In this document: piece after piece, positions 14,534 through 44,931 of the stretch
Layout of the letters: each line of letters begins with the position of its first letter
Position numbering within the stretch: the stretch's first letter is position 1
NCBI GenBank assembly: GCA_963977015.1
Contig: CAXBMO010000015.1
Location: 1 to 64,000, forward strand
DNA length: 64,000 bases
DNA from: an uncultured bacterium
Lineage (GTDB): Bacteria > Verrucomicrobiota > Verrucomicrobiia > Verrucomicrobiales > DEV007
Reading direction: 5' to 3'
The notes under the pieces: model-generated
What the model was told of the DNA's origin: nothing
Databases searched by the model: none
What the model saw: the letters and a program-made list of their open reading frames with translations, nothing else
Position numbers and translations under genes: made by a program

Positions 14534-15442
14534 TCAGTTCAACTGATTTGCAAACCTAAAATGCGTCTTTCCGACTGTCGAAAGGAATTCGAACCCGTGA
14601 TCTTTGCGGATTTCTTTGACCAATTCCTGCACTTTTAGGCCTGCACCCCGGGGGAGCGTGGTGCCCAATTCTTCACTTTTTTGGGCCAACCAATCGATAA
14701 ATTTTTCCCGGGCGAGGATCGAGGCCGCAGCAACAGCAATGTCACTTTCAGCTTTTGTGCGTTGTTCGAGATCAATCTCCAGGCCTCTCGCCTCCAACGC
14801 CGAATTCAGTTCCCTGGGATTTGCGAATTGATCACTCAAAGCCCGCGGACAATCCGGCTTCGCCTTGGTCAATTCCTCGATCGTCTTCACATGTCCCCAG
14901 GCGAGCAGTTTGTTCAGGTTGCGAAAGCTTTGATACATCTCGTTGTATTTGGCCGGGCCAATCGAGACCACTTCCCAGGCCGCGCCCTTCGTCGATCGGA
15001 TCATTTGAGCCAGTTTTCGAATCTTCGCGTCAGATTTAATCGCCTTGCTGTCCTGAATTCCCTCATCGAGCCACCTTTTCGCAATCACCTTGTCCACGTA
15101 GGCTCCCGCGATCACCAGCGGGCCAAAGAAATCGCCCTTGCCGCTCTCATCGATCCCAAAATGCGGCTCAAACATCTCCGGATTCACCACTTCCTCATTT
15201 CCCAATTCCGCCACTCCCAGCACCATCGGTTCGAGGATGAACTGCACAAACTCCTCCGTTTCCTTGCCTTGAACGAGAATTTTGGGCCCTTTTTCGTAAA
15301 CCGCCACGTTCAGCTTGCCTTTCCTGGCGGCATAGATCGTCCAATCCTTCTCCACAAACTCAAATCCATTGGCCCGGAGAATCGGGCGCAATTCCTCGGC
15401 TTGGGTTGCAGTCAGGGCGTGCGTGTAGGAAGTCTTCGGCAT
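14534..15442 (-). CDS. rnhC: Ribonuclease HIII
   Basis: N-terminal extension (KILVQGK) plus GIDESGKGDFFGPLV, DSK, DQF and VAAASILAR. Confidence 0.92.
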   Translation of the reverse strand: MPKTSYTHALTATQAEELRPILRANGFEFVEKDWTIYAARKGKLNVAVYEKGPKILVQGKETEEFVQFILEPMVLGVAELGNEEVVNPEMFEPHFGIDESGKGDFFGPLVIAGAYVDKVIAKRWLDEGIQDSKAIKSDAKIRKLAQMIRSTKGAAWEVVSIGPAKYNEMYQSFRNLNKLLAWGHVKTIEELTKAKPDCPRALSDQFANPRELNSALEARGLEIDLEQRTKAESDIAVAAASILAREKFIDWLAQKSEELGTTLPRGAGLKVQELVKEIRKDHGFEFLSTVGKTHFRFANQLN

Positions 15443-15461
15443 CGGAACCGGAACCTAACTT

Positions 15462-16514
15462 GTGGACCAACTCGGAGCAAACAACGAATCGAAGCCTCTC
15501 GCAACGCGCGATCCGCTCGAACACGTCAAACAACTTCGAACCGCCGTGATTCGTTGGTATGAGGAAGTAGCCGAGGATTATCCCTGGCGGCGAACGCGCG
15601 ATCCCTACGAGATCCTGGTATCCGAGATCATGCTCCAACAAACCCAGATCGCCACGGTCCTCGGCAAGCGCTACTTCGAGCGTTGGCTGGAAAAGTTTCC
15701 CGATGTCGCCACCCTGGCGGCGGCTGATGAGTCCGAGATTCTCAAAGCCTGGGAGGGACTCGGCTATTACCGGCGTGCTCGGAATCTGCAAAAAGCCGCC
15801 CGCGCCGTAGTCGAGGAACACGGTGGGGAATTCCCAACCACCTACGACGCGATTCGCGCGCTTCCCGGAGTAGGCGATTACACGGCGGGCGCGGTATCCT
15901 GTTTGGCATTCGGGATGCCGGTGGCGATGGTCGACGCCAACATCGCCCGGGTTTTTGCACGCTGGTTCGATTACGACGAGCTGATCGATTCCACCCCCGG
16001 TAAGAAGCAACTCCAGACGTGGGGAATGCAACTGGTCGCTCCCAATTCCCCGAAACAGTTCAACTCCGGAGTTATGGAACTGGGCCAAAAACATTGCAAA
16101 CCCAGAAATCCCGTCTGTCACGAATGCCCGGTGACCAATTTCTGCGCGACTCGAAATCCCGAGCAGCTCCCGAAAAAGAAAGCCGCACAAACGATCGAAT
16201 CGATCACCGAATTCGCGTGGTTCGTCCGTGATGGCGACCGAATTTTACTGGAACAGGAAACCGGAAACCGCCGCGAAGGGTTGTGGAAGCTTCCGATCGC
16301 CTCTGCAGACGAAATTTCAGGTCGTGATGAGGTGCTCCGAACCCAATATTCCATCACCAAGTATCGGGTCACCCTCCGGATTTTTCGCGGGAACGCGACA
16401 GAAACCCATGGAACGTGGGTCACTCGCCAAAATCTCAACGAAATTGCGATTGCTGCGCCTTTTCGGAGCGCGCTTGAGCGATTGCTTGAGGTAGATCTAT
16501 TTGGTGTACCTTAG
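15462..16514 (+). CDS. mutY: A/G-specific adenine glycosylase
   Basis: PWR..DPYEILVSEIMLQQT, GLGYYRRARNL, LPGVGDYTAGA and C-X6-C-X2-C-X5-C Fe-S motif. Confidence 0.95.
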   Translation: MDQLGANNESKPLATRDPLEHVKQLRTAVIRWYEEVAEDYPWRRTRDPYEILVSEIMLQQTQIATVLGKRYFERWLEKFPDVATLAAADESEILKAWEGLGYYRRARNLQKAARAVVEEHGGEFPTTYDAIRALPGVGDYTAGAVSCLAFGMPVAMVDANIARVFARWFDYDELIDSTPGKKQLQTWGMQLVAPNSPKQFNSGVMELGQKHCKPRNPVCHECPVTNFCATRNPEQLPKKKAAQTIESITEFAWFVRDGDRILLEQETGNRREGLWKLPIASADEISGRDEVLRTQYSITKYRVTLRIFRGNATETHGTWVTRQNLNEIAIAAPFRSALERLLEVDLFGVP

Positions 16515-16524
16515 AGCCTACCAC

Positions 16525-16576
16525 GTTATACCTATTTATTCTGGAATTCAGGTATAAACGGGTATAACTCGATAGA
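16525..16576. repeat. Palindromic element A upstream of the AAA ATPase gene; diverged direct-repeat partner of 17763-17811
   Basis: Imperfect dyad GTTATACC...GAATTC...GGTATAAC (16525-16568); 16528-16576 matches 17763-17811 at 32 of 49 positions without gaps (counted by hand). Confidence 0.75.
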
Positions 16577-16580
16577 GTTC

Positions 16581-17756
16581 ATGGATCCCGTTCGAAATCC
16601 TTTCTCGCCAGGCGCGGGGTCGCCGCCGCCGGAACTGGTCGGTCGTGAGGAAGTGATGGAGCAAGCCCGGGTTTTGTTTGCCAGAGCGCTCCAAGGCCGG
16701 GCGGAGAAAAGTTTGATCCTCACCGGTCTGCGCGGGGCCGGAAAGACCGTGCTTCTCAACGAAATGTGCCGTTTGGCAGAGGAGGAGCACTATCAAACTC
16801 TTTTCATCGAAGCCCATGAAGACAAGACGCTCGCGGCCTTGCTTGCCCCGCAGCTGCGGCAACTATTCTATCGGCTCGATCGGTTGAAGAGCGCCAAAGA
16901 AAAGATCAACCGTGGCCTCGCTATCCTCAAAAGTTTCATTAGCAGCGTCAAAGTCACGTTCGATGACGTTTCCATCGGTCTCGACATTGAGCCGGAAAAG
17001 GGTTCGGCCGACAGCGGCGATCTGGAAATCGACTTACCGCAACTTCTCGCAGCCGTCGCTGCTGCCGCCACCGATACCAAAACGGGCGTCGCCATCATTA
17101 TCGATGAGTTGCAATACTTCAGCCAGGAAGAGCTGAGTGCCTTGATCATGTCGATGCACAAAATGCAGCAGCGCCAACTGCCACTGGTTTTGCTTGGAGC
17201 AGGTCTCCCAACCTTGCCTCGGCTGGCTGGAGAATCGAAATCCTATGCGGAACGCCTTTTCAATTTCCCAACGATTGGACCGCTTTCACCCGATGATGCC
17301 GCCCGCGCCTTGCGAGATCCGATCGAAAAGGAAGGTGAGCTAATTGATCCGCAAGCCCTCGATCAAATCGTTCAACTGACTCAAGGATATCCCTACTTTG
17401 TTCAGGAATGGGGCTACCAAGCCTGGAATCGGGCCGAATCCAGTCCCATCACAATTGATGTCATTCAAAAAGCCACCTCTGATACCCTTCGGAGACTCGA
17501 CGAGAACTTTTTCCGGGTTCGTTTCGACCGCCTTCGGCCCAGCGAGAGAATTTTCCTTCGCGCCATGGCTGAATTGGAAGAGCCTTGCCGCACTGGTGAT
17601 ATTGCCGAAAAATTGAAGGTTAAGGTCGGAAGTCTCAGTCCACGGCGGGCCCACCTCATCTCCAAGGGCATGATTTACAGTCCGACCCATGGCGATTTGG
17701 CCTTCACCGTCCCAATGTTTGGCGATTTTTTGCGCCGGACAATTCCCGAGTTTTAG
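16581..17756 (+). CDS. AAA+ ATPase (AAA_16/archaeal-ATPase-like) with a C-terminal winged-helix domain
   Basis: NPFSPGAG..LVGR, Walker A GLRGAGKT, Walker B IIIDELQ and TQGYPYFVQ; C-terminal TGDIAEKL..SLSPRRAHLISKGMIY is wHTH-like. Confidence 0.85.
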   Translation: MDPVRNPFSPGAGSPPPELVGREEVMEQARVLFARALQGRAEKSLILTGLRGAGKTVLLNEMCRLAEEEHYQTLFIEAHEDKTLAALLAPQLRQLFYRLDRLKSAKEKINRGLAILKSFISSVKVTFDDVSIGLDIEPEKGSADSGDLEIDLPQLLAAVAAAATDTKTGVAIIIDELQYFSQEELSALIMSMHKMQQRQLPLVLLGAGLPTLPRLAGESKSYAERLFNFPTIGPLSPDDAARALRDPIEKEGELIDPQALDQIVQLTQGYPYFVQEWGYQAWNRAESSPITIDVIQKATSDTLRRLDENFFRVRFDRLRPSERIFLRAMAELEEPCRTGDIAEKLKVKVGSLSPRRAHLISKGMIYSPTHGDLAFTVPMFGDFLRRTIPEF

Positions 17757-17762
17757 AATGGG

Positions 17763-17811
17763 ATACCTAACTATATCCACTTTTGGATATAAATAGGCAG
17801 AAGTCGATAGA
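17763..17811. repeat. Palindromic element B downstream of the AAA ATPase gene
   Basis: Core TATATCCA-CTTT-TGGATATA (17772-17791) with outer CCTA/TAGG arms; same symmetry axis as element A when aligned. Confidence 0.75.
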
Positions 17812-17817
17812 ATCACC

Positions 17818-18729
17818 ATGAAACCCGAACCGATCTGGATCCATTCCTCCCGCCAAATGGCCGCGGTGGCGAGTTTACGCCAATCCAGCCTGCCGAGCGG
17901 GAAAATCCCACATCTCTTTCACTACGAAGGACTTCGACAAAGCCAACTCTGGATGGAGGTGGCCCGGGCTCATGCTCCCAATACCGAGTCGACCTATCAT
18001 AAGATCTTCCAAGTGGCGCGGGAATGGATGGGAGACGAGCCGATTCATGTGGTGGGGCTTGGCGCGGGTGGCGCTTCGAAGGAACGCAAGCTGCTCGAAG
18101 GATTGACGAAACCGCAGTTTACGCCGGTGGATGTGAGCGATTCGCTCGCGCTGCTTTCCGCGCAGCAGACCCGGGATTTGACCGAACAACCGCCAAAGCC
18201 GCTAGTTGCGGACCTTCTTGCCTATCCGGACCTGCCGGAATGGTTGGATGAATTTGATTCCGGCCGGAAACGCCTCTTCACCGCCTTCGGTTTGACCCCG
18301 AACACGGCTCCGAGCGAGCTTCTTCCGGTGTTGCGCGGCTTTCTGCGCCCGGAAGACGCCCTTCTCGTCAGCGCGAACCTGTTCACGAGCGTTGACGATG
18401 TCATGAGCCAATACGACAACCCGGAAACGCGTGCCTGGCTTTCCCAGGTATTGATCGATTGGGGAATTCGCGATCGGCTGAGCAAACCGGCCTTCCGCTG
18501 GGGCGAAATCGATGGTCAAACCGCGGTCATCGCGGAATCGCGTTGGCTGGAGGACGCTGATTTGGAATGGGAAGGCGAAATGTTCCACGTGGAACAATCC
18601 CAGGTTTTGCGCCTGTTTTTCAGCATTCGTTACACCCGGGAAACGTTCGACAAGGTGCTGAGCGCGAACCAACTCCAACCCAAATCCGGTGCCACGGGTG
18701 GAGATTACATCTGTTTGGTGGAACGATGA
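17818..18729 (+). CDS. EgtD-like SAM-dependent methyltransferase (Methyltransf_33-like)
   Basis: P.LFHY.GLRQSQLW, GLGAGGASKE, PVDVS, YDN and FFSIRYT motifs; divergent member. Confidence 0.65.
   Translation: MKPEPIWIHSSRQMAAVASLRQSSLPSGKIPHLFHYEGLRQSQLWMEVARAHAPNTESTYHKIFQVAREWMGDEPIHVVGLGAGGASKERKLLEGLTKPQFTPVDVSDSLALLSAQQTRDLTEQPPKPLVADLLAYPDLPEWLDEFDSGRKRLFTAFGLTPNTAPSELLPVLRGFLRPEDALLVSANLFTSVDDVMSQYDNPETRAWLSQVLIDWGIRDRLSKPAFRWGEIDGQTAVIAESRWLEDADLEWEGEMFHVEQSQVLRLFFSIRYTRETFDKVLSANQLQPKSGATGGDYICLVER
18581..18596. other. parS site inside the EgtD-like CDS
   Basis: Perfect TGTTCCACGTGGAACA, read as M-F-H-V-E-Q. Confidence 0.88.
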
Positions 18730-19475
18730 CGTCACTCCTTTTCAACCCGGAATTCTCGGTCGTCGATGAGTCTCCGGACTGGATTGTGGCCGACAAACCG
18801 GCCCATCTCCTGAGCCATCCGAACAAACCGGGCAACCCGCCGACCTTGCTCGATGGTCTGGAGGGACTTTATGCGTTTGAAATCGCGAATGGAGCGCAAA
18901 TCTCGGTCATCACGCGGCTCGACCGCGATACGAGCGGTTTGGTTCTGCTTGCGAAGAGCTCGGAATCGACCCGCGATCTCAGCCTGGCGATTCAATCCGG
19001 CGCGATCGAGAAGGAGTATCTTGCTCTGGTTTGGGGATGGCCGTCGGAGGACGAATGGGAGGTCGATGCCCCCATTTTGCGGCTGGGAGAGGTCGAGGAG
19101 GCCAGGATTTGGCTGAAACGCGGCGTTCACCGCGACGGAAAGGCGAGCCGAACGCGTTTTCGGGTCGAATCCCGGTTCGAGCGCTCCACCACCAACGGAT
19201 CCCGCTTTTCGCTGATCCGCGCGTTCCCTTTGACCGGGCGCATGCACCAAATCCGGATTCATCTGGCGCATTCCGGCTTTCCGGTCGTGGGCGACAAAAT
19301 CTACGGGCCGGATGAGCAAAACTACCTCGAGTTCATCGAAACGGGTTGGACCGAATCGCTGTCGAAACGCCTGCTTCTCGATCGACACGCACTTCATGCC
19401 CATCGTCTGCGGTTCGGAGAGTTGGAGTGGGAGGCACCGCTTCACTCCGACATGGCCGGTTTTCTCGCCATTTAG
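18726..19475 (+). CDS. RluA family pseudouridine synthase
   Basis: DKPA, RLDRDTSG, KEYLALV, TGRMHQIRIH and VVGDKIYG; ATGA overlap with the upstream stop. Confidence 0.93.
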   Translation: MTSLLFNPEFSVVDESPDWIVADKPAHLLSHPNKPGNPPTLLDGLEGLYAFEIANGAQISVITRLDRDTSGLVLLAKSSESTRDLSLAIQSGAIEKEYLALVWGWPSEDEWEVDAPILRLGEVEEARIWLKRGVHRDGKASRTRFRVESRFERSTTNGSRFSLIRAFPLTGRMHQIRIHLAHSGFPVVGDKIYGPDEQNYLEFIETGWTESLSKRLLLDRHALHAHRLRFGELEWEAPLHSDMAGFLAI

Positions 19476-42973: not shown

Positions 42974-43275
42974 TCTAGGGTAGAGTTTAGCTGGTAAAAA
43001 GTGCCTGGGGCCGGGAAATGCTTGATGGATGCGCAACAACGGCAGAATCCCTCCCCTCGGCAGGTGTATCCTTCTCTAGCTGGGTTTCCCCGATTGTCGA
43101 CCGCAAAACCAATGCGGACAAGATACCGGGTATCCTCGCACTATCGCAAGAACATGAATGCGACCCCATTTATCCGTTGACTCTCCATGACGAGGCTGAG
43201 ATTATGAAAATCACTGAAGTTTCTAATTTTTGTTGACTTAAGTTAAAAGTCTAGAAAACTTAATAGAAGAACTTT

Positions 43276-44931
43276 ATGAAAATCCCGCATCGATTTCTCG
43301 TCCCATCCGCCCTTCTGCTTTTGCCTTTCGGCAATCTCGCACATGCTGAAGACTCGGTAGTCTACACGGACATCATTGCTCCTGTATTGGAAGCAAAATG
43401 CGTCTCCTGCCACGGAGCCGACAAGCAAAAAGGAAAGTTGAGAATGGACTCCATGGAGTTCCTCAAGAAAGGCGGCGGCGAAGGACCTGCGATCGTCGCA
43501 GGAAATGTGGATGAAAGCCTCGCGTTGTTTCGGCTCTCCCTGCCGTTGGACGACGATGAGCACATGCCGCCCGAAGACAAGGAACAGTTTACAGAGGCCG
43601 AGACCAAGCTTCTGACCTTCTGGGTGGAGAAAGGTGCAAACCCGACAATTAAACTCAGCCAACTCGGATTGCCTGACGACCTCAAGGGAAGTGTAAACAC
43701 GATTTTGGCATCACTGAAGGCCAAGCCTGCCAAACCCGCACCAACTGCAGAGGAATTGAAACAGGCAGAAGCCAAGAAAAAGCTCGCCGCAGAGGTCATG
43801 GCGAAGGTCAACGCCACCGGTGCCACATTGATGCCGATTGCCCAGAACACGCCCGAGCTCCGGTTTTCCGCACTGAATGTTGCCAAGGACTTTGGCGATG
43901 CCCAGCTCAAAATGCTTGAGCCTGTTGCCGACCAGATTGCGACGGTCGACATTGCCCGCACCCAGGTTTCCGATGCCGGTTTGGCGACAATTGGGAAAAT
44001 GTCCAACCTGAGGCAACTCAAGGTGGAGAAAACAACCATCTCCGACGCAGGCTTGAAACACCTCACCGGGCTCAAGAATTTGGAGTATCTCAATCTCTAT
44101 GGAACTCAGGTAACGGATTCCGGACTCGCTCACCTTTCCGGACTATCCAATCTTTCCCGACTTTATCTCTGGCAGTCGAAAGCGACGAGTGACGGAGCAG
44201 AAAACCTGAAGAAAAAACTTCCCAAGGTGATCATCAACCTGGGTTGGGAACACGAAGCGAAGCAAAAAGCCGTTCAAGTTGCCGCCGCAAAGCCCACTCC
44301 CGCCCCAGCCCAAAAACCGGCGCCAGCGCCAGCGCCCAAACCGACTCCCAAGCCCGCTCCAGCTCCAAAACCCGAACCTAAGCCAGCGGCTGCTCCTGCC
44401 ACACCCGCACCTGCAGCCACCGCTGCGGCAGGCGTAACTTTGGCCGTGCTCGAGTCCCATTTGAAAGCGGCTCACGATGAAGCCAACCGTCTCAACTCGA
44501 CTGCAACCAAAGTCTTGGCTGATGCAAAAGCAGCGTCTGCTGCCGCTGCCACAAGTCTAGACCAGGCAAAGAAAGACGCAGCTGCAAAGCAAAAAGCGGC
44601 GGAGTTGGCCAAAGGTCAAATTAAGGACCGCGAAGCTGCGGTGAAGGCCATTCAAGGAGCTCTGGAGACCACCAAGGCACAGGCTGCGCTCGCGGCCCTC
44701 TCAAAGCGTCTCGAAGCAGATCTTGCTGAAGCTCAAAAACTTCTCACGGATGGTAGGAATGCCGTGACTGCCGCTGATGATGCGGCCAAGAAAGCAACTG
44801 CAGCCATTGCTGCAGCTGAGAAAACTGCTGCCGCCAAGGCGCAGGCTGTTGAGTTGGCCACCAAACAGGTTGCCAAGGTCGAAATGATCACGAAATCGAT
44901 CGTCGCTGCCGTCGCATCTTCCAAGAGCTAA
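43276..44931 (+). CDS. Planctomycete cytochrome c + leucine-rich repeats + Pro/Ala linker + Ala/Lys coiled-coil protein
   Basis: Signal peptide; KCVSCHG and HMPP; LRRs (LEYLNLYGTQVTDSGL); PAPAPKP linker; long helical tail. Confidence 0.85.
   Translation: MKIPHRFLVPSALLLLPFGNLAHAEDSVVYTDIIAPVLEAKCVSCHGADKQKGKLRMDSMEFLKKGGGEGPAIVAGNVDESLALFRLSLPLDDDEHMPPEDKEQFTEAETKLLTFWVEKGANPTIKLSQLGLPDDLKGSVNTILASLKAKPAKPAPTAEELKQAEAKKKLAAEVMAKVNATGATLMPIAQNTPELRFSALNVAKDFGDAQLKMLEPVADQIATVDIARTQVSDAGLATIGKMSNLRQLKVEKTTISDAGLKHLTGLKNLEYLNLYGTQVTDSGLAHLSGLSNLSRLYLWQSKATSDGAENLKKKLPKVIINLGWEHEAKQKAVQVAAAKPTPAPAQKPAPAPAPKPTPKPAPAPKPEPKPAAAPATPAPAATAAAGVTLAVLESHLKAAHDEANRLNSTATKVLADAKAASAAAATSLDQAKKDAAAKQKAAELAKGQIKDREAAVKAIQGALETTKAQAALAALSKRLEADLAEAQKLLTDGRNAVTAADDAAKKATAAIAAAEKTAAAKAQAVELATKQVAKVEMITKSIVAAVASSKS

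Follow-up and report, generated by a model that had tools for sequence, protein, structure and literature searches.

The ATPase locus and its two spacer elements

The stretch of DNA analysed here, referred to as the window, comprises 64,000 nucleotides (positions 1 to 64,000) of contig CAXBMO010000015.1, from an uncultured bacterium of the Verrucomicrobiales. On its plus strand, a gene for a 391-aa AAA+ ATPase with a C-terminal winged helix (P0001, 16581..17756), assigned from Pfam matches, an AlphaFold model and fold matches, lies between mutY, the gene for an A/G-specific adenine glycosylase (15462..16514), and a gene for a Methyltransf_33 (EgtD-like) S-adenosylmethionine-dependent methyltransferase (17818..18729). 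The spacers on either side of the ATPase gene measure 66 bp (16515-16580) and 61 bp (17757-17817), and each carries an element built of short repeats. Element 1 (16516..16580, plus strand) fills the mutY-ATPase spacer and is a putative operator of a type that recurs in the ATPase family, identified by a profile made from the operators of other genomes, by its dyad and by its repeat units. Element 2 (17761..17813, plus strand), in the ATPase-methyltransferase spacer, appears to be a diverged second copy, identified by its identity to element 1 and by the same profile. Both spacers are much richer in A and T than the surrounding DNA, as an earlier note on this locus had remarked, with a G+C content of 0.38 upstream and 0.36 downstream of the ATPase gene vs 0.55 for the window.

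The two elements open with ATACCTA and close with TCGATAGA, which stands 4 bases (element 1) and 6 bases (element 2) ahead of the ATG codons at 16581 and 17818, respectively. The right arm of element 1 consists of the heptamers GGTATAA (16551), GGTATAA (16561) and GATAGAG (16571), and that of element 2 of GATATAA (17786), GGCAGAA (17796) and GATAGAA (17806), so that an exact 10-bp period is present in both. The left units are likewise 10 bp apart: TTATACC (16526), the exact inverse of GGTATAA, and TTATTCT (16536) in element 1, and GGATACC (17761) and CTATATC (17771) in element 2. Each element thus has five units, two on the left and three on the right, in a common register. Only 8 bp separate the innermost units in the window, and in element 1 this centre reads GGAATTCA (16543-16550). 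On re-checking, the coordinates and motifs quoted in the earlier note, the heptamer positions included, were all found to be correct.

The ungapped match between the elements that had been reported previously, 32/49 positions (16528-16576 vs 17763-17811), was reproduced and is significant against shuffled spacers: the best ungapped overlap of the whole spacers gives 35 matches, a value reached by none of 2000 shuffles (mean 22.2, sd 1.8, maximum 30). When the 49-mer of element 1 was tried at each of the 127,691 positions that the two strands of the window offer, element 2 was the single best placement with 32 matches, followed by 29 at 43219, and all other placements gave 26 or fewer. ATACCTA occurs four times in the window (0.47 expected), and exact TCGATAGA is confined to the two spacers. 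The runner-up, 43219-43267, is an AT-rich spacer ahead of a gene encoding PSCyt1 and leucine-rich-repeat domains (43276-44931). At 29/49 to element 1 it carries TTTCTA...TAGAAA and TAGAA-like words about 10 bp apart, is not matched by the family profile, and may be a chance resemblance or a very weak third site.

Both elements had been described as imperfect palindromes about the same axis. For element 1 the palindromy is strong, with 20 of 28 positions complementary (0/200 shuffles reach this value). For element 2 it does not attain significance over the whole element, and an inner palindrome, TATATCCA-CTTT-TGGATATA, with 12/14 matching, can be read from its sequence. The axes, read from the coordinates, lie at about 16547.5 and 17781.5 and coincide within about 1 bp in the 1235-bp register of the two elements, so the common axis holds as an approximation.

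The upstream element as a trait of the ATPase family

A genome scan returned at least 588 confirmed relatives of the ATPase, and 80 loci, 61-69% identical to P0001, were kept for comparison (designated by L and a number). The 90 bp upstream of the gene were examined in 77 of the 80; the gene bounds could not be defined in L013, L015 and L080. Across 77 regions (76 loci and the window) mean identity at an offset of 10 is 0.452 (shuffles, 0.275), and an offset of 20 gives another peak. Taking the 70 bp before each ATPase start, 10 bp is the best offset among 7-14 in 67/77 upstream regions. Mapped locus by locus, the layout consists of two or three inverted units on the left, sometimes more, a short centre (about 8-16 bp in the other loci, by eye), and two or three direct units on the right. 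The sequence of the unit varies among loci and the two arms vary together, e.g. TCTAAC/GTTAGA in L079, CTTATG/CATAAG in L004, and TTCTAT/ATAGAA in L046; the right arm is of the TATA[AC] type in 54/76 loci. At most 2 of 200 shuffles attain the dyad score of the region in question in 53 of the 78 regions scored. Direct repeats in phase, together with changes that are matched from arm to arm, point to a site for an oligomeric protein rather than to an RNA hairpin.

Aligned on the ATG, the upstream regions yielded only a blurred logo, since their register shifts by whole units from locus to locus; the per-locus maps and an nhmmer profile were used instead. The latter was built from 18 operators of other genomes, without the window sequence, and on both strands of the 64-kb window it finds two places only, elements 1 and 2. 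Its match to element 1 spans 16516-16576 (E 2.1e-12 on the plus and 5.8e-9 on the minus strand) and begins 2 bp after the mutY stop codon. Among the loci with defined bounds the profile matches the locus's own upstream region in 70/77, and it also matches directly before the gene in L013, L015 and L080. Throughout some 0.9 Mb of loci plus the window, the only matches above 5 bits other than such own operators are element 2 (11.2 bits) and L048:2995-3020 (5.6 bits).

The repeats are tied to the start codon. A fixed position of the profile falls in clusters 2-3, 12-13, 22-23 and 32 bp from the ATG, and the phase of the repeats relative to the ATG is constrained, with 34/68 loci in two of the ten residue classes. 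Overall, the operator lies 2-80 bp before the ATG; in the window it is contained in the 66-bp spacer. On plasmids, the copy in Protochlamydia (64% identity) has an operator almost superimposable on element 1, and among five plasmid homologues at about 50% identity a phased dyad was recognised by eye and autocorrelation in three (L084, L085, and L087) and was not clear in L083 and L086.

The shared flanking motif that the earlier note had proposed to look for among homologues is therefore found family-wide on the upstream side, as shown by the period and by the profile. Judged by sequence comparison, a DNA site of phased repeats goes with the ATPase gene from one bacterial phylum to another, and the upstream element of the window is such a site. 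The site is conserved with the gene in different hosts and overlaps the presumed promoter region, as would be expected at the sequence level of an autoregulatory operator. The original observation is thus confirmed and is broader than could be seen from the window.

The ATPase protein

P0001 has a Walker A motif, GLRGAGKT, and a Walker B DE at residues 175-176, both invariant in a 30-sequence alignment. It belongs to Pfam AAA_16 (PF13191; 66.7 bits against a cut-off of 32.6, residues 18-204) and also matches AAA_22. The match to ATPase_2 (PF01637), 29.5 bits, lies below the cut-off of 33.2, and many homologues of P0001 bear a precomputed PF01637 label. NCBIfam TIGR02928 (orc1/cdc6) covers residues 16-95 only and gives 32.1 bits vs a cut-off of 181.3, so P0001 is not an Orc1/Cdc6 protein by sequence, and a sequence search of the PDB returned only ORC4 (E 4.7e-4, residues 14-67).

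The AlphaFold model, made from the same 30-sequence alignment (pLDDT 80.8, pTM 0.80), shows an AAA+ core and, after it, a winged helix (about residues 320-376), the arrangement that characterises the Orc1/Cdc6 fold group. The top Foldseek matches of the model are 2qby_A, 2v1u_A and 1fnn_A (probability 1.00, TMq 0.42-0.48); RuvB is also among the best fold matches in the PDB, and the highest TM-scores are obtained with the archaeal proteins PAB2304 (2qen, TMq 0.57) and SSO1545 (2fna, TMq 0.55). The earlier description of the protein as AAA+ with a C-terminal winged helix-turn-helix, Orc1/Cdc6-like or STAND-like, therefore stands in its first part, on the fold matches, and falls in its second. 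As a candidate STAND NTPase P0001 was rejected, given that nSTAND6 scores 20 bits, below its cut-off of 27.7, and that the 391-residue chain finishes after the winged helix, with no room left for a sensor-repeat domain. On the predicted model, P0001 is an uncharacterised ORC/Cdc6-fold AAA+ ATPase with a winged helix.

Comparison with the defence-system models of PADLOC-DB v2, BREX models included, gave no significant match to P0001; the best, mad8 (E 1.1e-5, 23 bits), covers only the P-loop region and the rest have E 1e-3 or worse. In the ESM Atlas, only unnamed clusters of 'ATP-binding protein' were found. A homodimer prediction with two copies of P0001 gave a score of 0.00, which counts neither for nor against oligomerisation.

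Distribution and genomic context of the ATPase gene

A word-indexed protein search with P0001 matched at least 8000 proteins, the best 120 of which are 65-92% identical, nearly all 390-400 aa long, and named at most 'ATP-binding protein'. An exhaustive search of representatives at 50% identity returned 947 clusters at E <=1e-30 and 4233 at E <=1e-10. The 80 loci span Pseudomonadota, Verrucomicrobiota, Planctomycetota, Nitrospirota, Acidobacteriota, Chloroflexota, Actinomycetota, Campylobacterota, Elusimicrobiota, Omnitrophota, Deinococcota, and others. A FastTree protein tree of 76 rows, the window and 75 loci, was made without L013, L015 and L080 (undefined bounds), L053 (no upstream DNA) and L020 (truncated gene). 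It mixes phyla within well-supported clades, e.g. Actinomycetota with Nitrospirota (97) and Elusimicrobiota with Omnitrophota (100), and places the window as sister of the Verrucomicrobia locus L002 (support 99). Homologues are present in 120 plasmid records. A link of the family to phages was considered and rejected, the sole phage record with a homologue being weak (41% identity). The ATPase gene has spread horizontally.

The genes around it are highly variable, with 448 clusters among 488 neighbouring open reading frames (ORFs). None of the fetched loci has the neighbourhood of the window; of the window's neighbours, one distant RluA-like and one HU-like match occur in them, each kilobases from the ATPase gene. 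Type I restriction genes occupy the +1 or -1 position or directly follow the ATPase gene in L003, L004, L006, L008, L009, L012, L022, L047, L063, L076, and the Sphingobium plasmid locus L083. HsdR is encoded by the next gene, in the region between the ATPase gene end and about +3.2 kb, in L004, L006, L008, L022, and L047. In loci of the Rubrivivax type hsdR begins 40 nt ahead of the end of the ATPase gene, an overlap suggestive of translational coupling.

Another group of loci carries a gene for a 693-aa NERD/UvrD-type helicase (best PADLOC model 'NERD+UvrD', E 7e-32) that starts 0-14 bp after the ATPase stop, and consists of L026 (3237-5318), L044 (6194-8275), L041, and L045. Remnants of this gene, truncated to the first few dozen codons, are seen in L038, L070 and L078, and short traces in L031, L057, L067 and L073, so that the ATPase and helicase genes look like a decaying two-gene module. 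The recurrent neighbours are typical of defence or mobile DNA; besides those above, Fic, a relaxase, toxin-antitoxin pairs, recombinases and insertion sequence elements were met with. Directly upstream of the ATPase operator lie a defence-type reverse transcriptase gene, RT_UG14 (E 4e-212), in L026 (274-1815) and a gene for a HEPN_Swt1-domain protein in L044 (2949-4667), and the surroundings of these two loci are defence-island settings. Many other loci, the window included, have ordinary housekeeping neighbours.

Boundaries of the unit and second copies of the proposed operator

Where homology to the ATPase gene was followed into flanking DNA with BLASTN, it extends 100 bp or more upstream in 9 of 1280 locus pairs and ends within 90 bp in the rest; the lengths of these extensions have maxima at 20-39 and 60-79 bp, corresponding to the operator. 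On the downstream side it ends within 10 bp of the stop codon in 1544/1591 pairs, and the remaining pairs form two groups in which it runs into a partner gene and not into a repeat. From these upstream and downstream limits, the unit that moves between genomes consists of the operator plus the gene, without a conserved 3' element. The proposal that the gene and its upstream element constitute a self-contained module is borne out in this respect, since the phased dyad repeats accompany the gene in unrelated genomes and plasmids. Bracketing of the gene by two elements is not a property of the family: no downstream operator copy was detected with the foreign-operator profile in the 80 fetched loci.

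Second copies were also sought by sliding the operator of each locus along its own 5-kb flanks. Against a background of 22-27/45, higher values were obtained for L048 (33/45), L027 (30), L011 (29) and the window (28/45). The placements in L027 and L011 were rejected on inspection as low-complexity matches. In L048, from the Elusimicrobia, the second copy (L048:2990-3075) is about 2 kb upstream of the ATPase gene, in the spacer before a same-strand metallophosphoesterase gene. The product of the latter weakly matches the candidate defence model PDC-S10 (E 4e-9). Both second copies, in the window and in L048, precede a gene on the same strand, which fits an added regulatory target rather than the end of a cassette.

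Element 2 and the methyltransferase gene

Element 2 shares with element 1 the ATACCTA left end and a departure in the third unit, CGATAGA, from the family consensus GGTATAA. With this derived unit and end in common, element 2 is most simply explained, as far as the letters go, as a local duplicate of element 1 that was recruited before the methyltransferase gene, and is better read as an extra operator there than as a bracketing end of the ATPase gene.

The methyltransferase matches Pfam PF10017 with 40.4 bits (cut-off 23). Its assignment as EgtD proper was rejected (NCBIfam egtD, 26 bits vs a cut-off of 290.9). Fifty homologues were found at E <=1e-10, with identities of 86, 77, 74 and 68% followed by values of 54% or less; those that are named belong to Verrucomicrobiota, and the decay of identity is of the normal lineage type. 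Pairs of ATPase and methyltransferase homologues with identities of 92%/86% and 80%/68% are listed with longest contigs of equal size, 66,530 and 3,287 bp, respectively, and these equal sizes, the sole basis for the comparison, suggest that the adjacency of the two genes is kept in relatives. The methyltransferase gene is a candidate second target of the putative operator-binding ATPase.

Other genes of the region

The mutY product has the Pfam domains HhH-GPD, EndIII_4Fe-2S and NUDIX_4 and scores 275 bits with NCBIfam TIGR01084, slightly below the cut-off of 286.5. It also matches the PADLOC model 'REase_II, type II nicking endonuclease' (E 2.4e-38), which we read as a consequence of common HhH-GPD glycosylase ancestry with no defence role. 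The gene diverges from rnhC (14534-15442, minus strand) across a spacer of only 19 bp (15443-15461), so the promoters of the two genes must be situated within coding regions or overlap. Downstream, the longest ORF for an RluA-type pseudouridine synthase (18567-19475) overlaps the end of the methyltransferase gene by 163 bp (18567-18729), and the true start of the RluA-type gene is probably further downstream than that of the longest ORF. The 64-kb window holds no paralogue of the ATPase gene elsewhere.

Comparison with known systems

The archaeal Orc1/Cdc6 initiators (2qby, 2v1u) share with P0001 an AAA+ domain followed by a C-terminal winged helix and are among its best fold matches. At archaeal origins inverted recognition repeats flank an AT-rich centre next to the initiator gene, a layout that the present elements resemble in having inverted units about an AT-rich centre beside the ATPase gene. 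P0001 differs in scoring far below the TIGR02928 cut-off, its units are 7 bp long at a strict 10-bp phase around an 8-bp centre where archaea have long ORB elements, its host is bacterial, and its gene, scattered horizontally and situated here between mutY and a methyltransferase gene, has nothing pointing to replication. The archaeal ATPase_2 proteins PAB2304 and SSO1545 are of similar size, have the same AAA+ plus winged-helix layout and are likewise without an assigned function; P0001 differs from them in falling below the Pfam cut-off of that family, and we know of no DNA sites for either.

In the way they work, the controller (C) proteins of restriction-modification systems offer a likeness of another kind. 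C proteins are small Xre-type helix-turn-helix proteins; they bind DNA at a dyad operator (C-box) before their own gene, are found on mobile DNA, and are comparable to the ATPase in that the latter is in some loci directly ahead of, and overlapping, hsdR. Here, however, the protein is a 391-aa AAA+ ATPase, five or six phased units replace two short palindromes, and most of the ATPase loci, the window included, have no adjoining restriction gene. Short direct repeats one helical turn apart are also used by OmpR/PhoB-type regulators, through their winged-helix domains, and by the initiators that bind plasmid iterons, in which such spacing allows head-to-tail cooperative arrays. P0001 differs from both in having no receiver or Rep domain, in the coupling that its AAA+ domain would provide, and in the two arrays that face each other in a dyad.

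BREX BrxC and BrxD are defence ATPases of the ORC/Cdc6 AAA+ clade, according to PMC12839542, in which BrxD is tightly paired with a helicase gene and described as having no DNA-binding domains and BrxC is given as 1200-1300 residues long. The helicase pairing of BrxD resembles that of the ATPase with the NERD/UvrD-type helicase in some of the loci; P0001 is different from both proteins, at 391 aa with a winged helix and with no match to a PADLOC BREX model. By analogy, the closest functional counterparts would be autoregulated operator-binding proteins on mobile DNA, together with winged-helix regulators that act on phased direct repeats.

Interpretation

On the strength of the sequence comparisons, we consider it fairly probable that element 1 is an autoregulatory operator to which the ATPase itself binds and that element 2 is a second operator which puts the methyltransferase under the same control. 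Binding of the ATPase at sites beside its own gene was one of two options in the earlier note and is the best supported of the readings weighed here; the comparative data support it upstream and make it plausible downstream. In such a model the winged helix of each protomer would read one 7-bp unit, the 10-bp spacing would set successive protomers on one face of the DNA, and the AAA+ domains would couple neighbouring protomers, presumably under nucleotide control. Two opposed arrays, of two or three units on the left and three on the right, would then cover the entire 60-66-bp spacer, promoter included, and the protein would set its own level, most simply by autorepression. Gene and operator would be passed on together by horizontal transfer, as a single unit. 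Here, and probably in close relatives too, a diverged duplicate of the operator would have come to lie between the ATPase stop and the next gene, where it could place the Methyltransf_33 gene under the ATPase or could act as a second anchoring site.

Several results weigh against this account. The profile misses the operator in 7/77 loci (L008, L012, L044, L053, L064, L077, and L079); in L053 the DNA before the gene is only 21 bp long, and among the other misses most have units of a type other than TATAA. The presumed recognition helix hardly varies among loci with differing units. Raw Fisher tests of covariation between protein and DNA picked out several columns, including K348 near the winged helix. 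A phylogeny-aware test had only 6 independent pairs, too few for significance, and the sole visible co-change, of TCTAAC-type units with a changed helix start, is confined to one clade; covariation was for this reason rejected as evidence. Support for a promoter consists of a single sigma-70-like consensus match, TGGATA-18-TAGAAT (17784-17813), which is the only one in the region and lies inside element 2; the count for the region is no higher than expected from shuffles, and the consensus scan found no promoter in element 1. As to element 2, its whole-element dyad of 15/28 is reached by 16/200 shuffles and is not significant, and its profile match (17763-17813; E 0.016 on the plus and 0.73 on the minus strand) is weak when taken alone. 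Finally, second operator copies are limited to the window and L048, with none in the other fetched loci within 5 kb, so control of a neighbouring gene is not general in the family.

The weakness of element 2 bears most directly on the alternative that only element 1 is functional, element 2 being a decaying duplicate or a chance resemblance of an AT-rich promoter and the methyltransferase not being controlled by the ATPase. This has some claim to consideration, although we find it distinctly less probable than control by both elements. In addition to the low profile score and the dyad, the middle right unit of element 2, GGCAGAA, has lost the TA core, and the spacer at 43219 attains 29/49 against element 1 without any profile match. 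Set against this are the five units in register, the identity of both 7-8-bp end blocks, a position relative to the ATG that is the same as in element 1, and the rank of element 2 as the best non-own profile match in about 0.9 Mb. The other option of the earlier note, in which the elements would be the ends at which a mobile cassette of a single gene recombines, is in our view very improbable. On that reading they would resemble attC sites or terminal inverted repeats, and the ATPase gene would have entered between mutY and the methyltransferase gene through them. The ATPase gene is clearly mobile on an evolutionary scale and the two related elements bracket exactly one gene, the left one beginning 2 bp after the mutY stop. 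However, a two-ended cassette should show a related end on both sides in independent copies, and comparison of the loci offers no such support, with no downstream copy by the profile and with homology that stops at the stop codon or enters a partner gene. Moreover, the elements are mutually direct and not inverted, no recombinase was found to accompany the gene, the G+C content of the gene (0.546) equals that of the window and so bears no mark of recent insertion, and the equal-size contigs with homologues of both genes suggest a stable pair.

Two further explanations assign the repeats a role outside transcriptional control of this kind. The elements could be origin-like assembly sites on which the ATPase oligomerises to melt the AT-rich centre or to load or activate an adjacent motor protein, with control of transcription secondary. 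The fold, which most resembles those of Cdc6/Orc1 on origin DNA and of the archaeal ATPase_2 proteins, would suit such a role, as would the archaeal-like arrangement of inverted repeats beside an initiator gene and those loci in which a NERD/UvrD-type helicase or HsdR gene begins 14 bp or less from the ATPase stop or overlaps it. This is nevertheless unlikely: the centre is short in the window and elsewhere, most loci, the window among them, have no motor gene next door, the gene resides in chromosomes without other replication functions, and the tie of the repeat phase to the start codon is a better fit to promoter control. It is least probable, on a par with recombination ends, that the palindromes act as RNA, in the form of a 5' leader hairpin, attenuator or terminator, or are bound by a host factor instead of the ATPase. 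Each spacer is able to fold (element 1, -18.6 kcal/mol, z -3.28; element 2, -12.4 kcal/mol, z -1.94). A hairpin, however, needs no in-phase direct repeats within its arms, no Rfam match was found in 16300-18000 on either strand at E up to 1, and neither spacer contains a terminator-like site that could be found. A host factor, for its part, cannot explain an element that has followed the gene through more than 15 phyla and onto plasmids while its units drifted.

Beyond autoregulation by element 1 and control of the methyltransferase through element 2, a more tentative proposal, which we would put at somewhat less than the chance that element 2 is inert, is that the ATPase and its operator form a horizontally mobile switch. 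An ORC/Cdc6-fold ATPase in nucleotide-controlled opposed arrays would then gate itself and the genes behind copies of its operator: a restriction subunit or the NERD/UvrD-type helicase in defence islands elsewhere, and the methyltransferase here. Such a switch would amount to an ATP-driven counterpart of the controller proteins of restriction-modification systems, or to a sensor that lets go of its operator on meeting foreign DNA.

Significance for the ATPase family

Within the limited literature searched, no description of this ATPase family or of its sites was found, which agrees with the statement of the earlier note that no such sites had been described. The family is large, extends over many phyla and onto plasmids, and has been named only 'ATP-binding protein', so the operator would be the first testable molecular handle on it. 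As a conserved cis-element it gives a defined DNA ligand for binding and structural work, and scanning genomes for it offers a way to find the regulon of the ATPase. It may also offer a route to explaining the frequent occurrence of the gene within type I restriction operons and defence islands. The window itself represents a natural case with two operators, in which control of the ATPase gene and of the methyltransferase gene is directly testable.

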